Below are positions 7,696 through 40,807 of a stretch of DNA of 40,807 nucleotides, one piece after another. The notes beneath the pieces were generated by a model. The model saw only the letters and a list, made by a program, of their open reading frames with translations. It had not been told where the DNA came from and did not search any database. The DNA lies in assembly GCA_964628345.1 (NCBI GenBank), contig CAZVLZ010000002.1, positions 1 through 40,807 of the forward strand, given 5' to 3'. Position 1 is the first letter of the stretch. Each line of letters opens with the position of its first letter. The position numbers and the translations under genes were made by a program. The DNA comes from an uncultured Candidatus Peribacteria bacterium (GTDB taxonomy: Bacteria > Patescibacteriota > Gracilibacteria > Peribacterales > Peribacteraceae).

Positions 7696-9288
7696 TTACA
7701 ATTCCGCGGCGCTCCTACACTGCTCCGCCACCTCCGTATCGAGTTCCGCACCGTTGATGTACGGAAAGCACTCGTCCTTGAAGACGATTTTCAAGATACG
7801 GTCCAGCTGCTTGTTGCAGGGACGGAAAATGCAGGAGGTGCGCAGGAATGCGGCGAAGTCGCGCACGAATTTTCGAAGCCCCTTGTCGGAGGTCTGTACG
7901 GTCAGAGAGAGCGCACGCACCTCCGTGCGCAACGGTACGAGGTTCTCGAAGACCTGGAGAGGAGCATCAATGGTTTTGGCGATCTGCATGCTCTCTTCTC
8001 TGGCCTGATTGAGGCTGAATTTCTGCAGGTACTGCTGCGCGTCAGCGCGCGCGCCGAGCATCCAGAGGAACATGCCGTTCTCCAGTGCTTCGGCGGCATC
8101 CCGTTCGGGCGTACCCTCGGCCAATGCATCGGAGTTGCGCAGGTACGCAGGAGGCAGACGGTCGCGACCCCAGCCGTTCCATAGGATGGAGAGCTTGGGC
8201 AGGAGGACGGTTTCGTTCGGTGAGAATGAGAAGGGACCGCGCCGCTCCCACTCGGCGACGCCCTCCGGGAGCTTTTCGCCTTCCGACAGACAGCCATTTT
8301 TCACCTGGTGCTGCCGCTTGCCACTTGCCCCCGCTCCGAAGTTTGAAAGATCCGTTCCCCCTCCGCCCAGGCGCTGTTCCAGATGCACGATAGTGTCTTT
8401 GACTGTGCCGATATCTGCAATCGCAGCGTCGCGGTCCTGCATCAGCTTCTGCAGACCTTCGATTTCCTTCTTGATGCCGTCTGGACCATTCATGCGACTC
8501 TGCAGGACCGAGAGGTCGCATCCGTATCCGATACCGGTGGGGGGCAGATAGTCGGTGGAGAAGGGGCAGGGCTCCTCTTCATCCTGCCCGCCCGTCTCCG
8601 TCGACGTGCAGCCCGCATCCACGCAGGCATAGCGTCTCTTGTAGACCGATCCGCGCGCGCCAACGCATATGTTATATTCCTCGTCGTTGCTCATCTGTTT
8701 GCATGCGGAAAGTCGTCCGTCTTCCTCCAGATCGCCCGGGCAGCACCAGTAGGGGGGCGGATCGAAACTGTAGTACGTCCCCTCTTCCTCATCCACATAG
8801 GTGGGGTCCCGTGCGCCGAGCAGGAGTGCCTTGTAGCGATTATTCAGGTAGCGCTGCATCGAAATCAATCGCGCCGCCTCAGAGACTTTGCCCGCTTCGA
8901 GAGCTTCGTTCTTGCGCATGCGCGCGCGTTCCATCCATCCTTCCAGAATGAGGGTGTCGAGCCGCAGGCAAGGTGGATTCTCCGCGAGGTCCTGCCGCTG
9001 TTCCACGATGCGCAGGTCCGTGTCGATCGTGAGGAGGAAGAAGCCGGTAACCTTGTCGAGCCAGAAAAGTCTGAGCATCTTATCTGTTGTGGATTCGCCT
9101 CCGTCGGAATTCCTGAGTCCCGCATCGACCCGGCGCACCACCCGTTCCACGTAGGGCGAGACGGGTGTGAGATCGGCGTACTGATCACCCTCCTGCGCCA
9201 AGGCTTCGGCGGGCAGGCCTGCAGCCACTGACCCGAAGACCAGGGAGAGGGAGAGGAAGCCGGCGAACGACAAGGGAGTGCGCTTCAT
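7696..9288 (-). CDS. secreted Cys-containing orphan protein (gene 5 of a 5-gene operon)
   Basis: 530 aa. Signal-peptide-like N-terminus (MKRTPLSFAGFLSLSLVFGSVAAGLPAEALA). ATGA overlap with the upstream gene. No recognisable family. Confidence 0.75.
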   Translation of the reverse strand: MKRTPLSFAGFLSLSLVFGSVAAGLPAEALAQEGDQYADLTPVSPYVERVVRRVDAGLRNSDGGESTTDKMLRLFWLDKVTGFFLLTIDTDLRIVEQRQDLAENPPCLRLDTLILEGWMERARMRKNEALEAGKVSEAARLISMQRYLNNRYKALLLGARDPTYVDEEEGTYYSFDPPPYWCCPGDLEEDGRLSACKQMSNDEEYNICVGARGSVYKRRYACVDAGCTSTETGGQDEEEPCPFSTDYLPPTGIGYGCDLSVLQSRMNGPDGIKKEIEGLQKLMQDRDAAIADIGTVKDTIVHLEQRLGGGGTDLSNFGAGASGKRQHQVKNGCLSEGEKLPEGVAEWERRGPFSFSPNETVLLPKLSILWNGWGRDRLPPAYLRNSDALAEGTPERDAAEALENGMFLWMLGARADAQQYLQKFSLNQAREESMQIAKTIDAPLQVFENLVPLRTEVRALSLTVQTSDKGLRKFVRDFAAFLRTSCIFRPCNKQLDRILKIVFKDECFPYINGAELDTEVAEQCRSAAEL

Positions 9289-11750
9289 TCTTGAGATGAA
9301 CTCGATGCGCCGCAGAAATCAGGTTTTTCAGAGGCGACACGCGGGCAGGTCGTGAGCGGGAATTGCGTCTTCTCCATTGCCCTGAGGAGTTGATTGCCCG
9401 TGCGCAGCGTGTCGGAGAGAACCATGCCTGCCCACGAGAGATACCGGCTCAGGAGCGAGGTGCCGATGCGTGTCGAAATGCTCTGCGTCATACGTTGCAG
9501 CGCGAGCGTGGGGGTTTCGTTCTCCTCAATTTGCGCGGTGAAACTGAGTACCGTCGACACGTAGTCGCTGCCGGGGATATCCAATCGCCGCAGATAGTCG
9601 AACTGGCAGAGGATCGGCGGGGTGGAAGAAGGGAGTCCGTTGATCTGACACAGTGCGCGATCCAGCGATTCCACGAGCAGGCGTGGATTGTAGGCGGGTA
9701 GCAGGGGAGGTGAGATGGCGGGGAGCGTGATCAAACCACCGGCCTGGGGATCACTGACAGCGCAGGTATCCCAGGGAAAGGCTTCATCCCCCGCGACCAA
9801 CGGCATGCGGCCGGGAATCACGCGCGATTGTTCGACGGACTGTTCCACGCACTGCCCGATGTAGCAGAGGTTATTGCCGATCGTGTTTTGGTACTTCGTC
9901 TGGCACCCGGGCGAACAGGCACCATTGAGACCTTCGATCATGGAAAGAACGCGGCTGTCCAGGCGGGCCATTCCCGAAAGTCCACCGCTCGTCAGTTCAT
10001 TGCAGGACGGTGAGGTTGTCGTCGCATCTTTGCGCTGGAGTTGTTGCTCCACCAGTGTCTTCATATTGGCGACGGCGAATGCGGAACAGGCCTTTTCCCC
10101 GAAGCGCTGACAGCTCGCATTGGCCGATCTCCCGGCGCATTCCTCCAGAGACATGCCCAATGCCTCCAGGATGCCATCCTCCGCCAGAATGCGGCAGGAG
10201 GCGCGATAGGCTTCGAATTCGTGCGCGCAGCAATGTTCCGCCGTGTCAAAAATATCCGTGTCGGCTGCGAGATTGCAGAGCTGCTGTGCATGGGTGAGTT
10301 CGTGGACCAGCATCGACAAGAGTCCGCTGCGTGGAGTATCGCTATCAATGCAGATGCGTATCTTTCCGTTTTCATCCTTGCGGCTGGTAGAGCCTGATGC
10401 CCCTCCCTCGCAACTCTCGTTGCATGCGATCTCGATCGAACAGAGGCTGCATTCCGATGTGCCTTGGGAGCTGGAAGAGGACTGCATGAGGACATCGCCC
10501 GGGATGCGCCACCAGCCCGTGCGGCAGATGTCGGGTCCGGAGGCCGAGAGCGTCACCGGTTGTTTGGCCTGCATCGGCTTGCACTCCGTCAGCACGATGG
10601 AGCGCGGCTCCTTATCTTCGATCTCAGCGTTGCACCGGTCATGGCGCAGCGGGCGGCAGAGGTAGCCGTCACGCGCGAAGGCAAGATGGCACAGCCCGCC
10701 TTCCTGCTCCGTGGGTTCCACGGGCGGGTCTTCGTACCGTCCTCCCGGGCGGATGGCGAAGCGCTCAAGCACCGTGCAGTACGACTCGCCGAGTGTGCGT
10801 GGGTCGCAATTCTCCCCGCCCACCATGCCGATGGGAACGGGCGTGAGCATCAGATCCCATCCCACGCCCACATCCCGCTTGATGGTCCCGTCCACATTCT
10901 CCGCCATCATCCAGACGATGACATGTGCCGGACTGTCGAGCCTGCGCAACGGGAAGATCACAATTTCTCCTTTCTGCAGGGGGGGGTCAAATGAGAGCGC
11001 CGCGGAGGGCAGGGCATTACGCAGAGCACGGAGTTTCTCCTCCACCTTGCACGCACGCTTCTCGATGGCTTCGAAGAGCTCTGTCGGGCCATTGACCTCG
11101 CGGCACGGTTCCTTGTCGAAAGCGCTGATGCCGTAGCGGTACCGCCAGACGGCGTGCGGCATTGCATTCTGGAGCTCCGCGCCCAGTTCGCTGAACATGC
11201 GGTCCGTGACGCTGTCCGGGCGGGGAACGGCGCGCACCTGCGGAAAGACTTCGGGAGTCAGCAGGACGTCATCCTGACTGCGCCAGAGGTTGCGAATCGT
11301 CAATGTGCGCTCGGCGATGGTGAACACCTCTCCCATGTTGCCGCTCACGCCGGTCTCGTAGCCCGTTGCGATGTGCAGGAGGTCCGTTGCGAGTGTCCGT
11401 GTTTCAAGGATGTCGGTTCCCCAGTCGCGGAACATCTGGTACTTCTGCGCACAGGCATCGAACGTGGCATCGTACATCTCGCAGAAGTCGTCGTAACGCG
11501 TTTCAAAGGCCGCCTTCACCACCTCTTTCATGTCCTCCACACTCTTGCCCTCCGGGATCATTTTCTCCTGCCCGGCCATCTGCGCCACGTATGCGATGAT
11601 CTCATCATCCACCTGCTCCAGAGCCACTTCCTGAAGCGTGATGGTATGCATCGTGTCGTAGAGCTGCAGTTCGTCGGGAGCCTGTGCGAGCACCGTGCCG
11701 ACAGGCAGGAGGAGGAGGAAGAAGCCGGCGTAGAGTGTACGGCGGTTCAT
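9285..11750 (-). CDS. secreted Cys-rich protein with an HExxH zincin-like motif (gene 4 of 5)
   Basis: 821 aa. Signal peptide MNRRTLYAGFFLLLLPVGTVLAQA. HELTH is encoded at 10304-10290, followed by HEFEAY 23 residues later. The start abuts the upstream stop. Confidence 0.78.
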   Translation of the reverse strand: MNRRTLYAGFFLLLLPVGTVLAQAPDELQLYDTMHTITLQEVALEQVDDEIIAYVAQMAGQEKMIPEGKSVEDMKEVVKAAFETRYDDFCEMYDATFDACAQKYQMFRDWGTDILETRTLATDLLHIATGYETGVSGNMGEVFTIAERTLTIRNLWRSQDDVLLTPEVFPQVRAVPRPDSVTDRMFSELGAELQNAMPHAVWRYRYGISAFDKEPCREVNGPTELFEAIEKRACKVEEKLRALRNALPSAALSFDPPLQKGEIVIFPLRRLDSPAHVIVWMMAENVDGTIKRDVGVGWDLMLTPVPIGMVGGENCDPRTLGESYCTVLERFAIRPGGRYEDPPVEPTEQEGGLCHLAFARDGYLCRPLRHDRCNAEIEDKEPRSIVLTECKPMQAKQPVTLSASGPDICRTGWWRIPGDVLMQSSSSSQGTSECSLCSIEIACNESCEGGASGSTSRKDENGKIRICIDSDTPRSGLLSMLVHELTHAQQLCNLAADTDIFDTAEHCCAHEFEAYRASCRILAEDGILEALGMSLEECAGRSANASCQRFGEKACSAFAVANMKTLVEQQLQRKDATTTSPSCNELTSGGLSGMARLDSRVLSMIEGLNGACSPGCQTKYQNTIGNNLCYIGQCVEQSVEQSRVIPGRMPLVAGDEAFPWDTCAVSDPQAGGLITLPAISPPLLPAYNPRLLVESLDRALCQINGLPSSTPPILCQFDYLRRLDIPGSDYVSTVLSFTAQIEENETPTLALQRMTQSISTRIGTSLLSRYLSWAGMVLSDTLRTGNQLLRAMEKTQFPLTTCPRVASEKPDFCGASSSSQE

Positions 11751-12533
11751 TTACGGCAAATCACGGAGAGGATCTTTTGCATTCCAGATGCGCGGCAGAC
11801 AGGCAGCGGCTTCCGCGCCCAGTGCGAGAGCATTGCGGACGTCGATGGATGCGCGCTCGATACACTGCAGTTCCGTATGGAGCGGGAGAAGACGGCTCAT
11901 GCCTGCCAGGACCGCGAGCGAGCGATTGAGTGTGGCCCGCGCGGTCGTGAGTTCCCGCGCGATGATCCGGTCTTCTTCCGTTGTTTCCTCCAGGAGCTGC
12001 GTGAGCACGGTTTCCGTCGATTCCCCCTTGGCTTTCAGTTTGCTTTCCAGCTCGTTGAGCGCGTCAGGGTGCAGGAAGTACAGGCGTTCCTCCAGTGCAC
12101 ATTCGTAAGAGCGGAGGAATTCGAGGAGCACGGCACTCATCTCCCACTGACTGACGGAAGTGTCCTTCCATCCCGGCAATTGAGCGGCCAGTTTCGTAAG
12201 CTCGGGTCCCGCGGGCAGCACGCCATTCCCCGTTTCCGCAGCGCACTGCGGCGCGCGTGCGAACGACTGTATGTGCTCTTCAATGACGGCGGCGGCGGTA
12301 TCGTGATACGCCTTCGGCCAATCGGCGAAATTTCCGTTCGTGAACGGCAGCCGCGAGTACCCTTCGCTGAAGCGCGAACAGGGCGTGAGAATGGAATTCT
12401 CCTTTTCGCGTTGTGCGAGCAACGCGATGCTCGTCCCCGTGGGCGCCATTTTGTTCATGACGATTCCGGCTCCACCCACCGCCAGCAGGAGGAAGAGGAG
12501 AGAGCCGATGATGCGCGAGGAGCGGTATGTCAT
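11751..12533 (-). CDS. signal-anchored / secreted orphan protein (gene 3 of 5)
   Basis: 260 aa. N-terminal hydrophobic segment IIGSLLFLLLAVGGAGIV. ATGA overlap with the upstream gene. The rest looks largely helical. Confidence 0.7.
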   Translation of the reverse strand: MTYRSSRIIGSLLFLLLAVGGAGIVMNKMAPTGTSIALLAQREKENSILTPCSRFSEGYSRLPFTNGNFADWPKAYHDTAAAVIEEHIQSFARAPQCAAETGNGVLPAGPELTKLAAQLPGWKDTSVSQWEMSAVLLEFLRSYECALEERLYFLHPDALNELESKLKAKGESTETVLTQLLEETTEEDRIIARELTTARATLNRSLAVLAGMSRLLPLHTELQCIERASIDVRNALALGAEAAACLPRIWNAKDPLRDLP

Positions 12534-31963: not shown

Positions 31964-32242
31964 TCAACCCTCTACTTCCACCGTCACGTCCCCTTTGACC
32001 GTGGCCTGGCAGCCCAGCCGCTCATCGCCGCTCATGCCCATGGCTTCTTCGCGATCGTTGGGGGGACTCAAGTTCTCAGCGCCCTTGCGCGCATGGCACT
32101 TGCAGGTCATGCAGAAGCCGTTGCCTCCGCAGGCACTTTCCATGGGGATGCCGTTGGCCTGCGCCGCCTGCAGGACCGTGTCCCCGGCATTGGCCTCCAC
32201 TGTTTTTTCCTGACCGTTTACGATAAAAGTGATTTTGGGCAT
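31964..32242 (-). CDS. 2Fe-2S ferredoxin
   Basis: 92 aa. Beta-grasp ferredoxin pattern ACGGNGFCMTCKC...LGCQ. Divergent from sufC. Confidence 0.85.
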   Translation of the reverse strand: MPKITFIVNGQEKTVEANAGDTVLQAAQANGIPMESACGGNGFCMTCKCHARKGAENLSPPNDREEAMGMSGDERLGCQATVKGDVTVEVEG

Positions 32243-32287: not shown

Positions 32288-33043
32288 ATGAAGCGTCGCC
32301 CCTTCCTCTCCATCTGCAATCTGCACGTCTCTGTTGCCCAGAAGACAGTGGTACGTGGATTGACACTGGACGTGCGTCCCGGAGAGCTCCATGTGATCAT
32401 GGGTCCGAATGGCGCGGGCAAATCTTCCTTTGTGCATGCGCTCATGGGGCATCCCTCCCTTCGGGTCACGCAGGGGACCGTTCGGTTCGCCGGCAAAGAT
32501 CTGCTCTCCCTCCCGCCTCACGAGCGTGCCAGGGCAGGATTGTTTCTGGCATTTCAGCACCCGCGGGAAATCGCCGGAGTGAGCGTGCGGGATTTTTTGT
32601 ATGCCGCCCTCACGGCACAGCAGAAGAATTTTTCTCCGCTGGAATTCCACGATCGTTTGACGAGAGAAATGACGCTCCTCAACATTGAGCGTGCATGGGA
32701 GGATCGCGCGGTCCATCACGGTTTTTCTGGCGGGGAGAAGAAGAAGCTCGAGATCCTGCAACTCCTCGTTCTGGAACCGCAGCTGGCCCTACTGGATGAA
32801 ACGGACTCGGGACTCGATCTCGATGCGCTCAACGTGGTTGCAGACGGACTGAGGCAACTGCGCAAGCGTCATCCGTCATTCGCAGCCGTCCTCGTGACGC
32901 ACAACATCCGTTTCCTCTCCATCCTCAAGCCCGATCATGTGCACGTCATGCTTGCCGGGCAGATCACCGAGAGCGGGGGAGCCGCCCTGGTCCGCAGGCT
33001 GGAGAAACACGGTTTTCATAAGACAGCCACGACGCGCCCGTAA
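32288..33043 (+). CDS. sufC: Fe-S cluster assembly ATPase SufC
   Basis: GPNGAGKSS (Walker A), FSGGEKKKLEILQL, LLDETDSGLD, and the SufC-typical HPSLRVTQG region. Confidence 0.95.
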   Translation: MKRRPFLSICNLHVSVAQKTVVRGLTLDVRPGELHVIMGPNGAGKSSFVHALMGHPSLRVTQGTVRFAGKDLLSLPPHERARAGLFLAFQHPREIAGVSVRDFLYAALTAQQKNFSPLEFHDRLTREMTLLNIERAWEDRAVHHGFSGGEKKKLEILQLLVLEPQLALLDETDSGLDLDALNVVADGLRQLRKRHPSFAAVLVTHNIRFLSILKPDHVHVMLAGQITESGGAALVRRLEKHGFHKTATTRP

Positions 33044-33131
33044 TGCGTTCATGGCTCGTGGATGGGATAGGGGTCCATATCCTTCGCGGGACAAGTCTGC
33101 TATCATGAGGACTCTTTCCCCCTCTGTACAT

Positions 33132-33881
33132 ATGGATAATTCATGTTGTTCCAGTAAGCCGGCCTGCTGGGTGGGCATTCTGCTCGTCCTCGTCGCCGGC
33201 GGGTTCTACCTCACCGGGAAGGTCATCGAGCAGAAAGACTTTTCACCGATGACGATCTCCGTCGAAGGAACGGGCAAAGCCTCCGCAGTCCCCGATATCG
33301 CCGCCGTGAGCTTCGGCGTGCAGACCGGCCGGCAGACGACGGCGCAGCAGGCCATGAAGATCTTGACCGCGAAAATGACGGATGTCGTGGCGGCCGTGAA
33401 GGCGCAGGGCATCGAAGAGAAAGACATCACCACGAATTCCCTCTCGTTGCAGCCGGAATACGACTGGAGCGAAGGCCGGCAGATCGCACGCGGGTTCCAG
33501 GCCACGCAGACGTTGTACGTCAAGGTGCGTGATCTCGATAAGATCGGGGACCTGCTCGCCGCCGTGACGGGCGAAGGAGTGAATCAGATTGGCGGCGTGG
33601 AGTTCACCATGGATGATCCCGAGGTTCTGCAGGCCGCGGCACGCGAGAAGGCGATTATCAAGGCCGAAGCCAAGGCGAAGCTGCTGGCGGATCAGCTGGG
33701 TAAGAGTATCAAGCGTCTGAAGGGCTTCTCCGAAGGCGGCGGCTATATCCCTCCCACACCGTACGCCAAGGCGAATATCGCGCTGGACAGGGCTGGAGGG
33801 GCTGTCATGGAATCCGTTCAGATCCCGACCGGCGAACAGGAGGTCTCCGTCTCCGTCTCCCTGGTCTACGAACTGCAGTAA
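33132..33881 (+). CDS. SIMPL-domain (DUF541) protein, membrane-anchored
   Basis: Start set at MDNSCC, with leader ctctttccccctctgtacatATG. TM segment WVGILLVLVAGGFYL. SIMPL-like core (ISVEGTGKASAVPDIA...GFQATQTLYVKVRDLDKIG...IPTGEQEVSVSVSLVYEL). Confidence 0.82.
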   Translation: MDNSCCSSKPACWVGILLVLVAGGFYLTGKVIEQKDFSPMTISVEGTGKASAVPDIAAVSFGVQTGRQTTAQQAMKILTAKMTDVVAAVKAQGIEEKDITTNSLSLQPEYDWSEGRQIARGFQATQTLYVKVRDLDKIGDLLAAVTGEGVNQIGGVEFTMDDPEVLQAAAREKAIIKAEAKAKLLADQLGKSIKRLKGFSEGGGYIPPTPYAKANIALDRAGGAVMESVQIPTGEQEVSVSVSLVYELQ

Positions 33882-33910
33882 GGACGTTCTCTTTTGTCTT
33901 CAACGGGCGT

Positions 33911-33946
33911 ACGGATCGGAAAACCGGTCTGCACGTCCGTTTTTTA
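33911..33946 (+). terminator. candidate intrinsic terminator after the SIMPL gene
   Basis: Imperfect GC-rich stem-loop (ACGGA...TCCGT enclosing CGG-aaaa-CCG), followed immediately by TTTTT (33941-45). Confidence 0.4.
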
Positions 33947-33964
33947 TTCCCGAATGTCGTGCAT

Positions 33965-34372
33965 TCATCCGAGCAATCGCGCGATATCCTTGTGCAGAGC
34001 GACCAGCAGGCTGCCCACCGTGATGAGGAGTAAACCGAGCAGGATCGGCAGATCCCATTTTTCCCGTGCCACCACCGTGTTGAAGAGGAGCGCGGCAACT
34101 GGGGCCGCGGCGATCCAGAGCGCAATCACCACAAGAAAATTGCCGAAGGCGCGGTTGCCCCACTGAAAACCGATCCCGTAGAGCATGTTGATGATCACGG
34201 GGATCCAGATGAACGCGATCAGGGTGATCAGGAGTCCGATCAACGGTGAAGAGTACGCAAGGCCGAATGCAGAACCCCGGGCGGGTATTCTGCCCAGAAA
34301 GTACCCGTACCAGGTGATGATGAGTTGCGCGCAGAGGAATGCGAGCAGGACAAGAAGTTTCAGCATGGTCAC
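33965..34372 (-). CDS. small integral membrane protein (about 4 TM)
   Basis: 135 aa, almost entirely hydrophobic segments (LLVLLAFLCAQLII, LIGLLITLIAFIWIPVII, FLVVIALWIAAAPVAALL, ILLGLLLITVGSLLV). Confidence 0.7.
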   Translation of the reverse strand: MTMLKLLVLLAFLCAQLIITWYGYFLGRIPARGSAFGLAYSSPLIGLLITLIAFIWIPVIINMLYGIGFQWGNRAFGNFLVVIALWIAAAPVAALLFNTVVAREKWDLPILLGLLLITVGSLLVALHKDIARLLG

Positions 34373-34412
34373 AGCCTACCACGCTTTGCATGCGGCACGT
34401 GATCCATCACCA

Positions 34413-34532
34413 CTACTGATCGTCCTTGTCTTCCTCCTGCTCATCACACGTGCAGGCATTCTCTTCGCATTGGCACCCGCCGCACAGCTCGCAGATCGGT
34501 TCACTGCAGATTTCGCATGTCGTTTCTTCCAT
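34413..34532 (-). CDS. 39-aa acidic, 8-cysteine peptide (MEETTCEICSEPICELCGGCQCEENACTCDEQEEDKDDQ)
   Basis: Hand-translated; it is below the ORF-track cutoff. ATG 34532-30, TAG 34415-13. Preceded by the window-typical C/T-rich leader (ttctcccctctttcctctcATG). The 69-aa track ORF in another frame looks like off-frame noise. Confidence 0.5.
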   Translation of the reverse strand: MEETTCEICSEPICELCGGCQCEENACTCDEQEEDKDDQ

Positions 34533-34606
34533 GAGAGGAAAGAGGGGAGAAGAGAAAACATTCTCTCTCCATTCATACGCCGCATGCAAGAGGAGGTAGA
34601 TCTTGG

Positions 34607-35824
34607 CTACTCGAAGCGCATCGCCTCAATGGGACTCAATTTGGCCGCACGCAGTGCCGGGTAGAGCCCGAAGATGAGGCCCGTACCCACGGCCATGCCG
34701 AGTGCGAGTGCCACGGAGCCGACGGTGAGGGCGAACGAGAGGCTCCCCAGAAACTTCGCCGCAAGGCGGGTGAGCAGGAAACCGAAGAAACCGCCGCCCA
34801 CGATACCGATGATTCCTCCGAGCAGCGTGAGAGCCACCGCTTCGATGAGGAATTGCAGGAGAATATCTTTTCGCCGCGCCCCCACTGCCTTGCGCAGGCC
34901 GATTTCCTTGGTGCGCTCTGACACAGACACCAGCATGATGTTCATGATGCCGATGCCGCCCACGACGAGTGAGATGCCGGCAATGAGACCGAGGAAGATC
35001 GTGATGGAGAGGGTGACCGTGCCGACGATATCCATCGCCTGTTCGAAGGAGCGCGCGATGAAATCATCTTTGTCGGGATCATTTCCGGGATTATCCAGAT
35101 CATGACGCTGGCGGAGCAGTGATTTGATGTCTTCCTCTGCCAGTTCGACGTTCCCGGATGCCTGCAGAGAAATGTAATCCACGTACTGTCCTTTGCTCGT
35201 CATCGTCTTCGCCACGGTGTATGGGACGTAAATCATGCGATCCATCTGCGTGCCCATCATTCCCCCGAGTCCCTTGAGAACGCCGACGACGGTGAATTTT
35301 TGCTCCCCCACACTGATGCGCTTGCCCAGGGGGTCGGCATTGCCGAACAGGTTCTCGGCAATTTTCGGTCCGATGACCGCCACATTCTGCCCTCCTTTCA
35401 GGTCGCCATCCGTCAACAGTCGCCCCTGTTCAACCTTCAGCGACCAGTTCGAGAAAATTTCCTTGGATGTCCCGAGCACCATGGGAGTCTCTTCCTCCGA
35501 GCCGTATTTCACTTGCTGGGCAATGAATATTGCCTTCGCGACATTCTGCACCGTGGAGAGTTTGCCGAGGGCTTCGGCATCCGCTTCGGTGAGCGTGTTC
35601 ATGCCTTTGCCGATCTGCTCCATGCCTTTGGGCTGGACTTCAAATGTTTTGCCGCTGAAGGTACTCACCTGATCCAGGATGTATCGTTCGAACGTCGCGC
35701 CGACCGAGACCATCAGCACGACCGATCCCACGCCGATGATGACGCCGAGCGTCGTTAAGAGCGACCGCGAGAGGTTTCGCGTGAGTCCTTCAGTGGCCGA
35801 TCGCAGGGTGTCGGAGAGGAGCAT
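34607..35824 (-). CDS. ABC transporter permease, MacB/FtsX family (paralog 2)
   Basis: 405 aa. N-terminal TM (SLLTTLGVIIGVGSVVLMVSVG), periplasmic MacB-like domain, and a C-terminal FtsX 3-TM bundle (ERTKEIGLRKAVGARRKDIL). Confidence 0.9.
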   Translation of the reverse strand: MLLSDTLRSATEGLTRNLSRSLLTTLGVIIGVGSVVLMVSVGATFERYILDQVSTFSGKTFEVQPKGMEQIGKGMNTLTEADAEALGKLSTVQNVAKAIFIAQQVKYGSEEETPMVLGTSKEIFSNWSLKVEQGRLLTDGDLKGGQNVAVIGPKIAENLFGNADPLGKRISVGEQKFTVVGVLKGLGGMMGTQMDRMIYVPYTVAKTMTSKGQYVDYISLQASGNVELAEEDIKSLLRQRHDLDNPGNDPDKDDFIARSFEQAMDIVGTVTLSITIFLGLIAGISLVVGGIGIMNIMLVSVSERTKEIGLRKAVGARRKDILLQFLIEAVALTLLGGIIGIVGGGFFGFLLTRLAAKFLGSLSFALTVGSVALALGMAVGTGLIFGLYPALRAAKLSPIEAMRFE

Positions 35825-35897
35825 TTCAGTGAACGCAGAATGGAGGATGGTGAGGAAAGAGCTTGCAGATGTGAGAAAAACAGTGCTTCATTTTGGA

Positions 35898-37136
35898 TTA
35901 TTCATAGCGAAGAGCTTCCATGGGATTCAGTGCAGCGGCCTTGCGGGCCGGGTAAATGCCGAAGATGAGTCCCGTGCCTGCGGCCATGAGCAGAGCGGCG
36001 ATCATGGCGGTGATGTTGACGGCGAAGATGTAGCGTTCCAGGAACTTGCGGGCGATGCCGACAATGAGGGCGTTCAGACCCAAGCCCAGGAGCAGGCCGA
36101 TGATGCCGCCGATGATGGTCAGGACGATGGCCTCGATGAGGAATTGCATCAGGATGTCTCCGCGCCGCGCGCCGAGCGCTTTTCTGAGGCCGATTTCACG
36201 CGTCCGCTCCGTGACGGCCACCAGCATGATGTTCATGATGCCGATGCCGCCGACCACCAAAGAAATTACTGCAATCAACGTGATGAATGCCGTCAGACTA
36301 AAAGAGACTGTGCCGAGGATTTCCTGCGCCTGTTCGGAACTACGGACCAGAAAATCATCGTTGTCCGTCTCGATGCCGGTGGCGGGAGGCACGATGGTAT
36401 GACGCCGCCGCAGCAGGAACAGGATGTCATTCATGGCGTCCGCCGGATCGCCGGTCGCCGAGGTGGTAACCATATTCACGTAGGATTGCCGTGTCGTGAC
36501 CCGTGCCGTTTCGAACGGGACGATGATGCGTTCATCCATATTCTGGAAGAACTGCGAGCCCTTCGGTTCCAATACGCCGATGACCGTGTACTTCTGGTTT
36601 CCGATACCGATACGTTTGCCGATGGGGCTGGAGTTCCCGAACAGGTCGCGCGCGGTATCGGGTCCGAGTACGGCAACTTGGCGTCCATCGAGCTCATCCT
36701 GTTCATCGTGCAGCCGTCCCTCGGTCGCGACCACTGGCTGGTTGATGTAGGCATCGGGTGTCATCCCGCTCACCGACGCATCGGATTCCTCGGTGCCGTA
36801 CGAGACTTTTCCTTCCATGAAGATGATGGGAGTGACATGCGCAATCGTGTTGAGACGGCGGAGGGCGTCAACGTCGCTGATGGTAATGCTGTCGAAATCA
36901 GGGTTGAGAAACGATCCTCCTTCCTCCGGTCCGTTCTTTCCTGGCCAGATGGCGACGGTTTTGGGGCCCAGCGCGCTGATCTGGCCCAGAATGACGCTCT
37001 GCATGCTCTCGCCCACACTCGTCATGAGCACGACTGCCCCCACGCCGATGATGATGCCGAGCATCGTGAGGAGCGAGCGGACTCTATTGCCCCTCACTGC
37101 CTTGAGCGCGATGGTGACGGTATCGCGGAGTTGCAT
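35898..37136 (-). CDS. ABC transporter permease, MacB/FtsX family (paralog 1)
   Basis: 412 aa with the same architecture ([22 protein letters not shown] ... [20 protein letters not shown]). Confidence 0.9.
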
Positions 37137-37145
37137 GCGGCGGCG

Positions 37146-37886
37146 TTATTTAAGTTCTTTCAGGTTCTTTGCGATGCGACGCTCAAACGCATGGTCATCC
37201 GCAACAATGCGGCCATCCATAATACGGATGATGCGCGCGGCGTGTTCCGCCGTCGTTTTCTCGTGCGTCACCAGGATGATCGTGTGCCCCTCCTCGTGCA
37301 GATTCTGCAGGATTTCCATCACGTGTTTGCCTGCGGCGGAATCGAGGTTGCCTGTCGGTTCATCCGCGAAGATGACCCCCGGTTCCGTGACGAGCGCGCG
37401 CGCGATCGCCACGCGTTGCTGCTGCCCGCCGGAGAGCTGATTACTGAGGTAGGTTGCGCGATCCGTCAGCCCCACGGCCTTGATGGCCTTCATGACCTTT
37501 TCACGCCGCTCCGCCGACTTTGTTGCGCTGTGGTACAACAGGGGCAGCGTGACATTATCGATGACCGATGTTCTCGGGAGAAGGTTGAAGGACTGAAAGA
37601 CGAAGCTGACGCTCGAGGAGCGGATGCGTGCGAGTTCGTCCTCACTCTTCTCCTCCGTCGATTCGCCCCGAAAGTCGTAGTGGCCGGACGTTGGCACATC
37701 CAGAAATCCCAGAATGTGCATGAGTGTGGATTTGCCGGAACCGGAGGGTCCCATGATCGCCACGAATTCCCCGGCATCAATGCGCAGATTGATATCGAAG
37801 AGCACGGGCGTTTCCACCTGCTCATTGAAGTACGACTTGTGCAGGTTTCTCGTTTCGATCAGCGGTGCGGATTCTTTTTTCGTCAT
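37146..37886 (-). CDS. ABC transporter ATP-binding protein (MacB/LolD-type)
   Basis: Start trimmed to [20 protein letters not shown] (Walker A), [26 protein letters not shown]. Confidence 0.93.
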
Positions 37887-37908
37887 GGTGCTGAGGTGCA
37901 TGTGAAAC

Positions 37909-39687
37909 TTATTGTTTGATGAGGACGACCACGGTCTCGCCCTCGGCGAGTCCGCTGCTGATCTCGGCATCCGTGTCGGATTCCATGCCGACGGTGACGG
38001 GTTTCTCGGTCATTGTGCCGTTTTCCAGTGTGCGGATGATTTTGCCCTGGCCGTTCTTTTCCAGAATAGAGCGCACGGGGGCGAGGAGCACATCTTTGCG
38101 TTCGCCGGTGACGATCTCGGCATCCCCTGTCATGCCGATTTTAAATTCATCATGCGGATGCACGAAGCCCAGACTCACGCGGTACTTTGAAACGCCGTCG
38201 ATCTTGGTGGGCCCGGGTTCGACCGACATGACCCGGAGCGCGTAGTTCACTCCCGGGAAGGCATCGAGTTCGATGGAGCCGCTCTGCGACAGCTGGACCT
38301 TGGGGATATCCACTTCCGACAGGAACATTTCGACGTGGAAGGGGGAGGTGCCCAGCATGGTGATGGAGTGGCTGATGTTATCCGCATCACCGGTGAATTC
38401 TCCCTCCTTGAAGTCCACTTTCGTGATGACGCCGTCCGACGGGGCGCGGATGATCGTATCCTCCAGTTTTGCCTTTGCACGGGCGACGCTGGCCCCTGCG
38501 GAATTCATGTTCGCGCGCGCGGCGGCGAGCTGCGTCTCACGCGGGCCGGCTTTCGAGAGTGCCAGCTGCGCCTCTTGCGTGCGCAATGCGGTTTCGTAGG
38601 TGGCGATGGCTGATTCCGCTGCCTGCTTGCTCGCTTTGGCGGCGGCATACGTATTCTCCTCGGTCGTGATGCTGGTCGCGTAGTCCGCCGATGCGTCCCG
38701 CAGACTCTTCATCGCCGTATTAATGGCGCTGAGGGCGGCTTGCGTGTTGGCTCTCTCCGTGGCGAGGGTGGACTTGTGCGCCTCGCGCGTTGCCGTATCG
38801 AATGCCGTCGTGATCGGCAGGTCCGAGATGAGCGCGTACGCCTCCTGCAGAACGTTGCCGACCTGCATGATGACCGTCGTGGACTGCTGCAGGGAGGCAA
38901 GGGAAGCCTCGTATGTCGAGAACCCCGAGCAGCTGAAGGTATTGAGCGTCGTCTGCGCCGATGTCCAGTTGAGCCGGAAGATCGACCAGGATGTGGTGCG
39001 ATACTGCTTGGCCATGTCGGAGATCACGGAGCTTACGAAGACATCGTCGAGCGTCATCAGCGAGGTTTTTGCAATGGATATCTGTTGAGCGCAGGCACTC
39101 GAGGACGTGACGAGATATCCGGCAAGGTTGACGGCAGCTTCCGCCCTGATCGCCCTCAATTTATCCTCAGATGTGCGCAACTTCTCCTCGGCGCTCAGGA
39201 GGTCCGCTTGTGCGGCATCGAGAGCGGCGCGTTTATTGGCAACCTCAGCTTCGGCGATGGCGAGATCCTCCGGGCGCGTGCCCTCCGCCAGTTCCTGATA
39301 ATTCGCCTGTGCCTGACGGTACTGAGCGGAGGCGGCAGCCAGATCCGCGCCATACGATTCATTGCGCAGTTTTGCCAATTCCTGCCCGGCAGTCACTTTG
39401 TCGCCCTCTTTCACCAGGACGCGGGCGACGATGCCCGTCAGGGGGAACTTCATATTCACGTCGCGGTCCGAGGTGATGGTGCCCACCGCCTCGACTTTCT
39501 GGACCAGATCACCGCGCTTTACGGTTTCCGTGATCATTTCGGGCTGCACCGGCGAGAAGATGTACCACAGCAGGAGCCCGAACAGCAGGGCGAACACCGA
39601 AAGCACGGCTGACCAGATCGGGTGCCGCAGGGCAAAGGATTTGAGCGATGCCCAGATGTGCCGCAGGAGGGGGAGGGGGGTCCACAT
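37909..39687 (-). CDS. HlyD-family periplasmic adaptor with greatly enlarged helical insert
   Basis: 592 aa. N-terminal TM; lipoyl half-motifs at ~aa 80-107 (FPLTGIVARVLVKEGDKVTAGQELAKL) and ~aa 411-425 (TIIRAPSDGVITKV); beta-barrel/MP C-terminus. About 300 aa separate the lipoyl halves. Confidence 0.88.
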   Translation of the reverse strand: MWTPLPLLRHIWASLKSFALRHPIWSAVLSVFALLFGLLLWYIFSPVQPEMITETVKRGDLVQKVEAVGTITSDRDVNMKFPLTGIVARVLVKEGDKVTAGQELAKLRNESYGADLAAASAQYRQAQANYQELAEGTRPEDLAIAEAEVANKRAALDAAQADLLSAEEKLRTSEDKLRAIRAEAAVNLAGYLVTSSSACAQQISIAKTSLMTLDDVFVSSVISDMAKQYRTTSWSIFRLNWTSAQTTLNTFSCSGFSTYEASLASLQQSTTVIMQVGNVLQEAYALISDLPITTAFDTATREAHKSTLATERANTQAALSAINTAMKSLRDASADYATSITTEENTYAAAKASKQAAESAIATYETALRTQEAQLALSKAGPRETQLAAARANMNSAGASVARAKAKLEDTIIRAPSDGVITKVDFKEGEFTGDADNISHSITMLGTSPFHVEMFLSEVDIPKVQLSQSGSIELDAFPGVNYALRVMSVEPGPTKIDGVSKYRVSLGFVHPHDEFKIGMTGDAEIVTGERKDVLLAPVRSILEKNGQGKIIRTLENGTMTEKPVTVGMESDTDAEISSGLAEGETVVVLIKQ

Positions 39688-39702
39688 AGGTTCGTCTAAT
39701 GA

Positions 39703-39711
39703 TTATACCAC
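39703..39711 (-). promoter_or_regulatory. candidate extended -10 (TGGTATAAT) for the efflux operon
   Basis: Minus strand gtTGGTATAATcattagacgaacctATG. Perfect TATAAT with upstream TGn, 15 nt from the ATG. Confidence 0.5.
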
Positions 39712-39752
39712 AAAACAATATGTTTGTTTTGCATTTTCCCGGGATTTTATGA

Positions 39753-39770
39753 TGGAAAGTGTGCTTTCCA
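39753..39770. promoter_or_regulatory. 7-bp inverted repeat, candidate operator upstream of sufB
   Basis: TGGAAAG-tgtg-CTTTCCA, followed by a third half-site CTTTCC at 39773-78. Located in the divergent hlyD/sufB region. Confidence 0.35.
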
Positions 39771-39874
39771 TCCTTTCCAGCTATTGGCAGATTCGTTAAA
39801 AAGAATGCTTTTTTACGCGTTTTGTCTCGGGGGTTCTCCCCTCTGTCTCCGTCCCGTAGACTCCCCTGTACTCC

Positions 39875-40807
39875 ATGTCCCGTTCATCCAGGCCACGTGC
39901 GGCACTGCAGATCCCCAACGCCACTCCCTACACGCAGGGACTGGAACGTGGAATCTCGGAAGAGCTCGTGCGCCGGATCAGTGCGGAGAAAGGGGAACCG
40001 CAGTGGATGCTTCAGCATCGGCTGCAGAGTTTACGCATCTTCCAAAAATTCACGCTTCCCACGTGGGGACCGGATCTCTCGGGACTCGATCTTCAGGAGA
40101 TCCTCTTCTACGCCAGCCCCGGCGTTCCGCCGACCGATGACTGGACACAGATCCCCGAGGATATCCGCCTCGTCTACGAACGCCTGGGGATTCCGCAGGC
40201 GGAGTATGCCATGCTGGGAGGAGCGGGGGCGCAGTACGAGAGCGATGTTATCTACCATCGGCTCAAGGAGGAGTGGGCGGAACGCGGCGTGATTTTCCTC
40301 GACATGGATGAGGCGGTGCAGATGTACCCCGATCTTGTGCGTTCCACGTTCATGCAGTGCGTGCGGCCGACGGATCATGCGTTCGCCGCGCTGCACGGGG
40401 CTGTGTGGAGTGGTGGGACATTCCTCTACGTGCCGGCGGGTGTGACTGTTGTTGAACCGCTGCAGTCCTACTTCCGCATGAACGCGCGAGGGATGGGACA
40501 GTTCGAGCACACGCTCCTCATTCTCGAAGAGGGGGCGCAAGCACACTATATCGAAGGGTGCTCGGCGCCAAAGTATGTGAGTCCCTCACTGCATGCGGGA
40601 TGTGTGGAGGTGTTCGTGAAGCCGGGCGCGCGGATGCGCTACTCCTCCGTCGAGAACTGGAGCCTGAATACGTTCAACCTGAATACGAAGCGCGCGATCG
40701 TCGAGCGTGAGGCGACCATGGAGTGGGTGGGCGGCAATCTGGGCAGCGGTGTCACCATGCTGTATCCGTGTTCGATCCTCAAGGGTGAAGGCGCGCGCTG
40801 CGAGCAC
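39875..40807 (+). CDS. sufB: Fe-S cluster assembly protein SufB (3'-truncated by the window edge)
   Basis: Hand-translated in frame 2 from ATG 39875 (in-frame TAG at 39857). Sequence: ...GISEELVRRISAEKGEPQWMLQHRLQSLRIFQKFTLPTWGPDLSGLD...FAALHGAVWSGGTFLYVPAGV...HTLLILEEGAQAHYIEGCSAP...ENWSLNTFNLNTKRA. Absent from the track because it has no stop within the window. Confidence 0.95.
   Translation, partial: MSRSSRPRAALQIPNATPYTQGLERGISEELVRRISAEKGEPQWMLQHRLQSLRIFQKFTLPTWGPDLSGLDLQEILFYASPGVPPTDDWTQIPEDIRLVYERLGIPQAEYAMLGGAGAQYESDVIYHRLKEEWAERGVIFLDMDEAVQMYPDLVRSTFMQCVRPTDHAFAALHGAVWSGGTFLYVPAGVTVVEPLQSYFRMNARGMGQFEHTLLILEEGAQAHYIEGCSAPKYVSPSLHAGCVEVFVKPGARMRYSSVENWSLNTFNLNTKRAIVEREATMEWVGGNLGSGVTMLYPCSILKGEGARCEH

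Follow-up and report, generated by a model that had tools for sequence, protein, structure and literature searches.

Cys8, a conserved eight-cysteine microprotein gene and candidate metal-thiolate protein of Peribacteria

The stretch of DNA analyzed in this study, hereafter the window, comprises 40,807 nucleotides (nt) of an uncultured Candidatus Peribacteria bacterium (assembly GCA_964628345.1, contig CAZVLZ010000002.1, positions 1 to 40,807) and harbors on its minus strand, between a MacB-type pump operon and a gene for a four-helix membrane protein, a very small gene for an acidic cysteine-rich protein. This gene, designated Cys8, occupies positions 34413..34532 including its TAG stop codon (34415-34413) and encodes a microprotein of 39 amino acids (aa), among them 8 cysteines (20.5%) and 14 Asp or Glu versus a single Lys or Arg, with neither His nor aromatic residues and a net charge of about -13. 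Our translation matches the peptide quoted in an earlier note on this DNA, and the distance of 74 nt to the last permease gene, measured to its stop codon at 34607, was likewise given correctly there. A same-strand gene for a four-helix membrane protein indeed follows (TM4; 33965..34366, 133 aa), but the gap to its ATG at 34366 is 46 nt rather than 40 nt. A 58-aa form of Cys8 starting with TTG at 34589 was rejected because the indels upstream of the ATG in relatives are not multiples of three, and the frame is conserved as a protein from the ATG onward only. A 163-aa open reading frame (ORF) at 33900-34391 was rejected as the downstream gene; it lies in another frame than TM4.

The designation of the peptide as unannotated holds for the ORF track used at the time but not for the public records of relatives, in which the gene is called "hypothetical protein", e.g., PeribacterA2_0984 and ORF RIFOXYC2_FULL_PER-ii_58_32_945. 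In the genome paper of Ca. P. riflensis, Cys8 is ORF 945, a hypothetical protein without hidden Markov model (HMM) prediction, and the subsequent ORF has a sub-threshold SMR match (PMC4736985, Supplementary Table S2). The part of that paper's text dealing with cysteine-rich proteins covers solely large exported ones, and Cys8 is not among the 20 proteins of 580-3860 aa listed in its Table S4 (PMC4736985). No published description of Cys8, or of a metallothionein in the Candidate Phyla Radiation (CPR), was found in the literature searched.

Cys8 is a real gene. When 41 related genomes were searched in six frames, an intact homologous frame with all eight cysteines in register was recovered from 8/8 other genomes of the genus and from two further genera; two weak matches in one genome (G015; E values of 0.11 and 2.08) lacked the Cys motif. 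The earlier note had considered that the frame might be broken in syntenic regions of relatives, and the opposite was found. Of 200 genomes from the order that were searched with a profile, 32 were positive for Cys8, representing 15 of 84 genera and including two doubtful cases with stop codons and two divergent variants with altered spacing (G078 and G192). A total of 28 distinct peptides of 35-51 aa with identical Cys spacing was extracted from 44 loci, several of which represent one species reached twice. The alignment of 33 sequences follows the pattern C-x2-C-x4-C-x2-C-x-G-C-x-C-x4-C-x-C, in which C6, C9, C14, C17, G19, C20, C22, C27, and C29 never vary and at least 90% of the sequences have N25; the whole conserved part is a 24-residue block holding the eight cysteines. 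The codon-aware conservation analysis proposed in the earlier note, which was conducted according to Nei and Gojobori on the 30-codon core of 12 distinct sequences (66 pairs), revealed strong purifying selection, with within-genus values of 0.01-0.14 for pN, 0.06-1.06 for pS, and 0.02-0.24 for omega (dN/dS). For many distant pairs dS is saturated, and the top computable omega of 0.69 stems from one distant pair. The Cys codons themselves switch freely between TGC and TGT among relatives. All ten named contigs bearing Cys8 belong to metagenome-assembled genomes titled Ca. Peribacter, Peribacteraceae, Peribacteria, or Peregrinibacteria. The Cys8 profile matched 14 proteins in a collection of 5.8 billion proteins, all named ones being "hypothetical protein", and 1.84 billion cluster representatives, searched exhaustively with the HMM, contained 7 matches. 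As judged from these sequence matches, the Cys8 family is narrow and lineage-specific.

The start codon of Cys8 is directly preceded by a C/T-rich leader of 27 nt without a Shine-Dalgarno (SD) motif (34533..34559, minus strand), and C/T-rich leaders are kept in relatives. Further upstream on the same strand are a -10-like hexamer GAGAAT (34560..34565) and, at a distance of 18 nt, a -35-like hexamer TTGCAT (34584..34589), which sits directly behind the permease stop codon. In nine aligned upstream regions, the footprint reads CTTGCA-N17/18-GAnAAT followed by a C/T-rich stretch to the ATG; CTTGCA is invariant in 9/9 and the GA(G/C/A)AAT block is conserved, with a variable spacer. A consensus promoter scanner called no sigma-70-type site upstream of Cys8, because TTGCAT fits only 3/6 positions of TTGACA. 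Nevertheless, the conserved footprint suggests that Cys8 has its own promoter and leader and is transcribed independently, with a transcript predicted to start about 25-30 nt before the ATG. The earlier observation that Cys8 shares its C/T-rich leader with bona fide genes was borne out genome-wide (G000), where such 20-nt leaders are present at 12.7% of the gene starts versus 2.8% expected. When the first ATGs of 778 long ORFs were compared with 3346 inner ATGs, the respective proportions were 8.2% and 0.9% for the C/T-rich leaders and 13.4% and 1.1% for a -10-like box located 5-8 nt before the ATG (leaderless type), whereas SD-like motifs were not enriched (8.5% versus 10.7%). The start context of Cys8 is therefore of the kind used by real genes in this genome. 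Examples of these contexts in the window are 34533-34565, 34367-34381, and the region upstream of 39687. An extended -10-like element, TGGTAGGCT (34373..34381, minus strand), is located 6 nt before the ATG of TM4, and the retention of TGnTAnnnT at the same place in same-genus relatives suggests a separate promoter and a leaderless transcript for TM4 as well. Specific for this genome are about 28 extra bases between the Cys8 stop codon and the -10-like box of TM4, including the palindrome GTGATGGATCAC (34382-34412); in same-genus relatives, only about 18 nt separate Cys8 from TM4.

With respect to the neighboring genes, TM4 encodes a lineage-specific protein without a family assignment: it has no Pfam match but a weak, sub-threshold SMR-like match (E value of 0.03), and its 24 homologues are all unnamed or "hypothetical" and all from Peribacter or Peregrinibacteria. 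On the other side of Cys8, Pfam and NCBIfam matches define a four-gene MacB-type pump on the minus strand (34607..39687), consisting of a HlyD-type adaptor (37909-39687), an ABC ATPase with uncertain start (37146-37970), and two permeases with MacB_PCD and FtsX domains (35898-37136 and 34607-35824). Convergent with the Cys8-TM4 block, the plus strand carries sufC (32288-33043; TIGR01978, 294 bits, above the cut-off) and a SIMPL/YggE-like gene with uncertain start (32937-33881; PF04402), and sufB (39875..40807; TIGR01980, 428.7 bits, above the cut-off), which runs off the window, diverges from the pump operon. The minus-strand block of pump, Cys8, and TM4 is hence inverted within a split suf neighborhood extending from sufC and the SIMPL gene to sufB (32288-40807). 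A 92-aa 2Fe-2S ferredoxin is encoded on the minus strand 1.7 kb beyond TM4 (31964-32242); it matches Fer2 and scores under the cut-off of the ISC-type fdx model.

The composition of this neighborhood varies among relatives. Within 1.5 kb of Cys8, a permease gene is present in 18/30, TM4 in 13/30, the SIMPL gene in 17/30, sufC in 8/30, and sufB in 2/30 genomes, counts that are not phylogenetically independent and include one locus ended by the contig end. In five loci from four lineages (L015, L018, L022, L023, and L040), the pump and Cys8 are separated by 0.5-1.6 kb, and in four of them the gap is filled by a long ORF, which corresponds to a 491-aa Cys-rich protein in one case, to ORFs of 187 and 98 aa in two others, and to a 23S-rRNA-intervening-sequence protein in the last. 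The first of these, located between the last permease gene and Cys8 in a Ca. Peribacter record (L015:6423-7898, plus strand), is a very Cys-rich protein with a hydrophobic N-terminus and is reminiscent of the large exported proteins rich in Cys that have been described in Peribacteria; the last (L040:946-1341, plus strand; PF05635), likewise between a permease gene and Cys8, is found in one genus. In genus g38, Cys8 is flanked by peroxiredoxin and MgsA genes, and in genus g73, it is located near an HD-domain gene and miaA. Both permeases are encoded on other contigs than Cys8 in four of five genomes tested (G051, G052, G129, and G131), and no Cys8-like ORF was found beside the pumps on those contigs. 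No permease was detected at E values up to 1e-10 in G078, which is 97% complete. In both G078 and G107, sufB lies no farther than 1.5 kb from Cys8, and the interval contains no pump gene; of these two genomes, the whole-genome permease search covered G078. Gene order is conserved among these related genomes, so that a function cannot be deduced from any of these linkages, and the location of the pump on other contigs or the failure to find it in genomes with Cys8 indicates that it is dispensable for keeping Cys8. We therefore judge that the MacB-type pump is not the functional partner of Cys8.

The sequence of Cys8 provides its own clues. Its second half, C20-x-C22-x4-C27-x-C29, is a CXCX4CXC motif that is invariant in the 33 sequences and is known from CopY as the site where Cu(I) or Zn(II) binds (PMC11672702, PMC7558416) and as part of the REP (copper) motifs of Mac1 (PMC4992176). 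The 28 unique members contain 0-2 aromatic residues and 0-1 His, and Cys8 conforms in composition to the metallothionein class, i.e., a small protein with a high content of Cys in CxC and CxxC and few aromatic residues or His, but it does not match the profile of the SmtA/BmtA metallothionein family (Pfam, NCBIfam). The first Cys is located at residue 3-6, preceded by 2-5 residues, in 25/28 unique members, some of which start with M-E-C, and hence Cys8 has no leader; neither a hydrophobic N-terminus nor a signal sequence can be read from the sequence itself. AlphaFold2 predicted a confident fold from 33 sequences (mean predicted local distance difference test score [pLDDT] of 80.3), with values of 84, 90, and 86 for the blocks of residues 1-30 and of 58 for a disordered tail, and the outcome with 11 sequences was similar (mean pLDDT of 77.6). 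Beta-bridges at residues 5-12 and 20-26 of the model, which was calculated without metals, suggest two consecutive hairpin units with four Cys each. A profile search of the PDB retrieved rubredoxin alone, at a nonsignificant E value of 0.73, with the first two CxxC(G) knuckles of Cys8 aligned to both rubredoxin knuckles. None of the Foldseek matches of two models to the PDB was significant (best E values of 3.7-4.7), a comparison in which the 29-residue core provides little statistical power; the weak matches are two-zinc domains and zinc-knuckle segments or hairpins, the latter with root mean square deviations of 1.1-1.8 Å over 14-17 residues. VIA-align wide returned no Z score of 2 or more among 48,161 chains. 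In the ESM Atlas, the best feature scores (0.86-0.87) belong to unnamed clusters, and the nearest named entries (LIM and NinF) score 0.76, which is chance level.

The earlier note had listed a metallothionein-like chelator and a zinc microprotein among its proposals, and based on the Cys pattern, the motif, the predicted fold, and the lack of a leader and of a signal sequence, these two are still the best-supported readings, with metal binding itself as a prediction. Specifically, we estimate a probability of about 50% that Cys8 represents a new sequence family of cytoplasmic metal-thiolate microproteins, in which two Cys4 units are followed by a disordered acidic tail and which buffer or donate Zn(II) or Cu(I). 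The peptide would fold around metal ions as two consecutive tetrathiolate units, the first comprising C6, C9, C14, and C17 (CxxC-x4-CxxC) and the second C20, C22, C27, and C29 (CxC-x4-CxC, the CopY/Mac1 motif), followed by the strongly acidic, disordered tail; the resulting metallothionein-like or zinc-knuckle-like binder might hold Zn(II) or Cu(I) and deliver it. Metal binding, the two-site partition of the cysteines, the kind of metal bound, the location in the cytoplasm, and the role in the cell are all inferred.

Several observations weigh against this proposal. Pfam searches with 12 Cys8 members at E values up to 10 left 11 without any match, the twelfth (P0016) having one sub-threshold zf_UBZ match (E value of 0.79; 9.9 bits versus a cut-off of 25.6), and NCBIfam yielded no match either, so that a tie to a curated metallothionein or zinc-finger family is missing. 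The partition of the cysteines into two sites is based only on the DSSP bridges of the model. The conservation of G19 and N25 and the confident fold are more in line with a structural zinc knuckle than with a metallothionein of the classical floppy type. Between the promoter hexamers, no metal-sensor operator is conserved in the nine aligned upstream regions. The genome already possesses, elsewhere, a P1B-ATPase with HMA proteins, and the recurring neighbors (sufC, sufB, the SIMPL/YggE-like gene, and peroxiredoxin in another genus) point to iron-sulfur (Fe-S) metabolism or oxidative stress just as much as to Zn or Cu. The respective heavy-metal cluster on contig C18 of this genome (G000; 8856-12187) contains the gene of the P1B-type ATPase (788 aa), which has an HMA domain, together with a small CopZ-like HMA frame and a gene for another protein with HMA (540 aa).

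The rival explanations differ considerably in plausibility. That the frame arose by chance or is a conserved non-coding element, as its shortness might suggest, has a negligible probability given a codon-level pattern of purifying selection and residues that are invariant across at least 13 genera; moreover, no Rfam family matches the region at E values up to 1 and its RNA is less structured than shuffled sequences (z of +2.16), and Cys8 was consequently rejected as a non-coding RNA. No RNA data set was among 17 sequencing runs listed. Very improbable is also that Cys8 is a peptide that is exported or modified and that the MacB-type pump handles, be it a ranthipeptide/SCIFF-like ribosomally synthesized and posttranslationally modified peptide (RiPP), a peptide with a double-glycine leader, or a leaderless bacteriocin for which the pump would serve in export or immunity. 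Such a role would fit a peptide rich in Cys, Glu, and Asp that adjoins the pump in the same orientation in 18/30 genomes, and it would fit the presence in this genome of one radical-SAM/SPASM gene with maturase-like best matches followed by an ABC transporter gene. The proposal that Cys8 is a substrate of the neighboring pump nevertheless had to be abandoned, considering that the two genes are unlinked in several genera, with the pumps on other contigs in four genomes and no permease detected in G078, and that in MacB-type transporters no substrate path crosses the membrane, the substrates being accepted outside the cytoplasm (PMC5985334), a place that Cys8 without a hydrophobic N-terminus or signal sequence would not be expected to reach. 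The likeness to a double-glycine leader was not sustained either: the GG pair sits between the fourth and fifth invariant Cys, i.e., inside the invariant core, its first G is replaced by S, N, or D in 7/33 sequences, and a C39 peptidase (PF03412) was not detected in this genome (91% complete), whereas a true leader of this type spans 15-30 residues up to the GG and is cleaved by a C39 peptidase domain. As for a SCIFF or ranthipeptide precursor, the resemblance noted earlier lacks a leader, a co-occurring maturase, and a family match (no precursor family including SCIFF in NCBIfam at E values up to 1). The search for RiPP enzymes covered Radical_SAM, SPASM, and Peptidase_C39, and not YcaO, LanB/C/M, or other families; it detected two Radical_SAM genes, RlmN and a 456-aa SPASM-type enzyme, the latter also accounting for the one sub-threshold SPASM match. 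The best NCBIfam matches of this enzyme are peptide maturases, i.e., the PapB family (72 bits versus a cut-off of 340) as well as ScmE, WgkB, and StsB, which are also far under the cut-off. At E values up to 1e-5, however, the gene is present in 1/41 genomes and in 0/8 other genomes of the genus bearing Cys8, and it can therefore not be a conserved partner of Cys8. Its locus outside the window (contig C7:9003-13384 of G000; L024/L027), with a tmRNA gene, a GIY-YIG-like small ORF, the 456-aa radical-SAM/SPASM gene, and a 610-aa ABC transporter gene, looks like a strain-specific RiPP-type island, in which no precursor peptide was identified. Finally, a net charge of about -13 in combination with strict conservation would be atypical of bacteriocins. 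On the evidence of sequence and gene distribution, Cys8 is neither a substrate of the MacB-type pump nor a RiPP precursor.

Two further rivals retain the metal site but assign it another purpose. Possible, though doubtful, is a zinc-finger adaptor or regulator, in which a purely structural two-zinc Cys core would present the acidic tail to a partner protein or a basic surface, e.g., of a regulator, a nucleoid protein, or a ribosome factor. The confident fold, the conserved G19 and N25, and the weak structural matches to protein- or RNA-binding zinc modules would agree with this role, as would a tail that is always acidic but variable in sequence and length (35-51 aa in total), whereas a consistently co-occurring partner is missing (TM4 is within 1.5 kb in only 13/30 genomes), no structural match is significant, and there is too little conservation outside the Cys core to mark an interface. 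Somewhat less likely still is an iron or Fe-S protein connected to SUF or oxidative stress, either a rubredoxin-like mini redox carrier with Fe(Cys)4 or a small protein that carries or donates iron or Fe-S. Small redox carriers are strongly acidic, as is Cys8, and the gene lies within the split suf neighborhood, near sufB without a pump gene within 1.5 kb in G078 and G107, and next to peroxiredoxin in genus g38; its first two knuckles weakly resemble those of rubredoxin, again at a nonsignificant E value of 0.73, and neither a rubredoxin nor a Fer4 domain above the cut-off was detected in the genome, yet a 2-oxoacid:ferredoxin oxidoreductase (OFOR) is present. On the other hand, no known family of Fe-S proteins or rubredoxins has the Cys spacing of Cys8, the Rubredoxin model of Pfam (PF00301) matches neither the Cys8 peptides nor anything in the genome, and Cys8 is devoid of the aromatic core that is typical of rubredoxins. 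Inherited gene order may account for the suf linkage, and genera g38 and g73 lack it. Another carrier is available with the 2Fe-2S ferredoxin of the window (31964-32242), and Ca. P. riflensis has a flavodoxin-like gene beside korAB according to Table S2 of its genome paper (PMC4736985), both of which weaken the idea that Cys8 replaces a missing ferredoxin. A more specific version, with a probability lower again, is that Cys8 is a minimal iron/Fe-S protein of CPR bacteria, i.e., a previously unrecognized 29-residue two-site tetrathiolate module cooperating with SUF or ferredoxin-dependent enzymes, either in the role of a mini redox carrier or by donating iron or clusters; if so, it would rank as the smallest such protein, a solution specific to this lineage with genomes of about 1 Mb. 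The metal and redox gene content of the genome (P1B-ATPase, HMA, OFOR, ferredoxin, and no Fur-family gene detected) does not settle the metal of Cys8.

Peribacteraceae genomes have a size of about 1-1.5 Mb, yet strong purifying selection maintains this gene of 35-51 codons in at least 13 genera, and hence the cell needs Cys8. Without a curated family and undescribed in the literature searched, it exemplifies the small proteins that slip past ORF cut-offs. The present analysis also corrects a tempting mis-annotation, because proximity to a MacB-type pump makes Cys8 neither pump cargo nor a RiPP. If the microprotein binds metals, as proposed for the Zn(II)/Cu(I) buffer or donor, it would represent a new and very compact sequence family of bacterial metal-thiolate proteins and provide a handle on metal or redox homeostasis in CPR episymbionts that are not yet culturable alone.

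The locus and its product can be compared with several known systems. The order of adaptor, ATPase, FtsX-type permeases, and a four-helix membrane protein corresponds to the YknWXYZ-type MacB systems of Gram-positive bacteria, in which YknW is a co-transcribed membrane protein (PMC5985334), but this is a feature of the neighbors and not of Cys8, and TM4 differs from YknW by the lack of detectable similarity to a named family and by seemingly having its own promoter. SCIFF and ranthipeptide precursors are likewise short and Cys-rich with acidic residues near the cysteines, whereas Cys8 has neither their leader nor a family match or co-occurring maturase. With rubredoxin and zinc-knuckle modules, Cys8 shares the two CxxC(G) knuckles formed by its first four Cys, which are 4 residues apart compared with about 25-30 in rubredoxin and are not accompanied by aromatic residues. 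The second half of Cys8 has exactly the CXCX4CXC of the C-terminal CopY site and the Mac1 REP motifs (PMC11672702, PMC4992176). Unlike CopY, however, Cys8 is a free-standing protein of 35-51 aa with 5 residues before the first Cys, an additional CxxC-x4-CxxC half, and no winged-helix DNA-binding domain, and by sequence the likeness is one of motif and not of family, i.e., Cys8 is not a CopY. From the bacterial metallothioneins (SmtA/BmtA and MymT), Cys8 is distinguished by the absence of sequence similarity, a strictly fixed Cys spacing, conserved Gly and Asn, a confident predicted fold, a strongly acidic tail, and metal binding that is only predicted. It nonetheless resembles them in being very small and probably cytoplasmic, with about 20% Cys in CxC and CxxC and almost no aromatic residues or His, and MymT, a 4.9-kDa Cys-rich Cu(I) binder discovered as a non-annotated ORF (PMC7558416), was at first missed by annotation just like Cys8.

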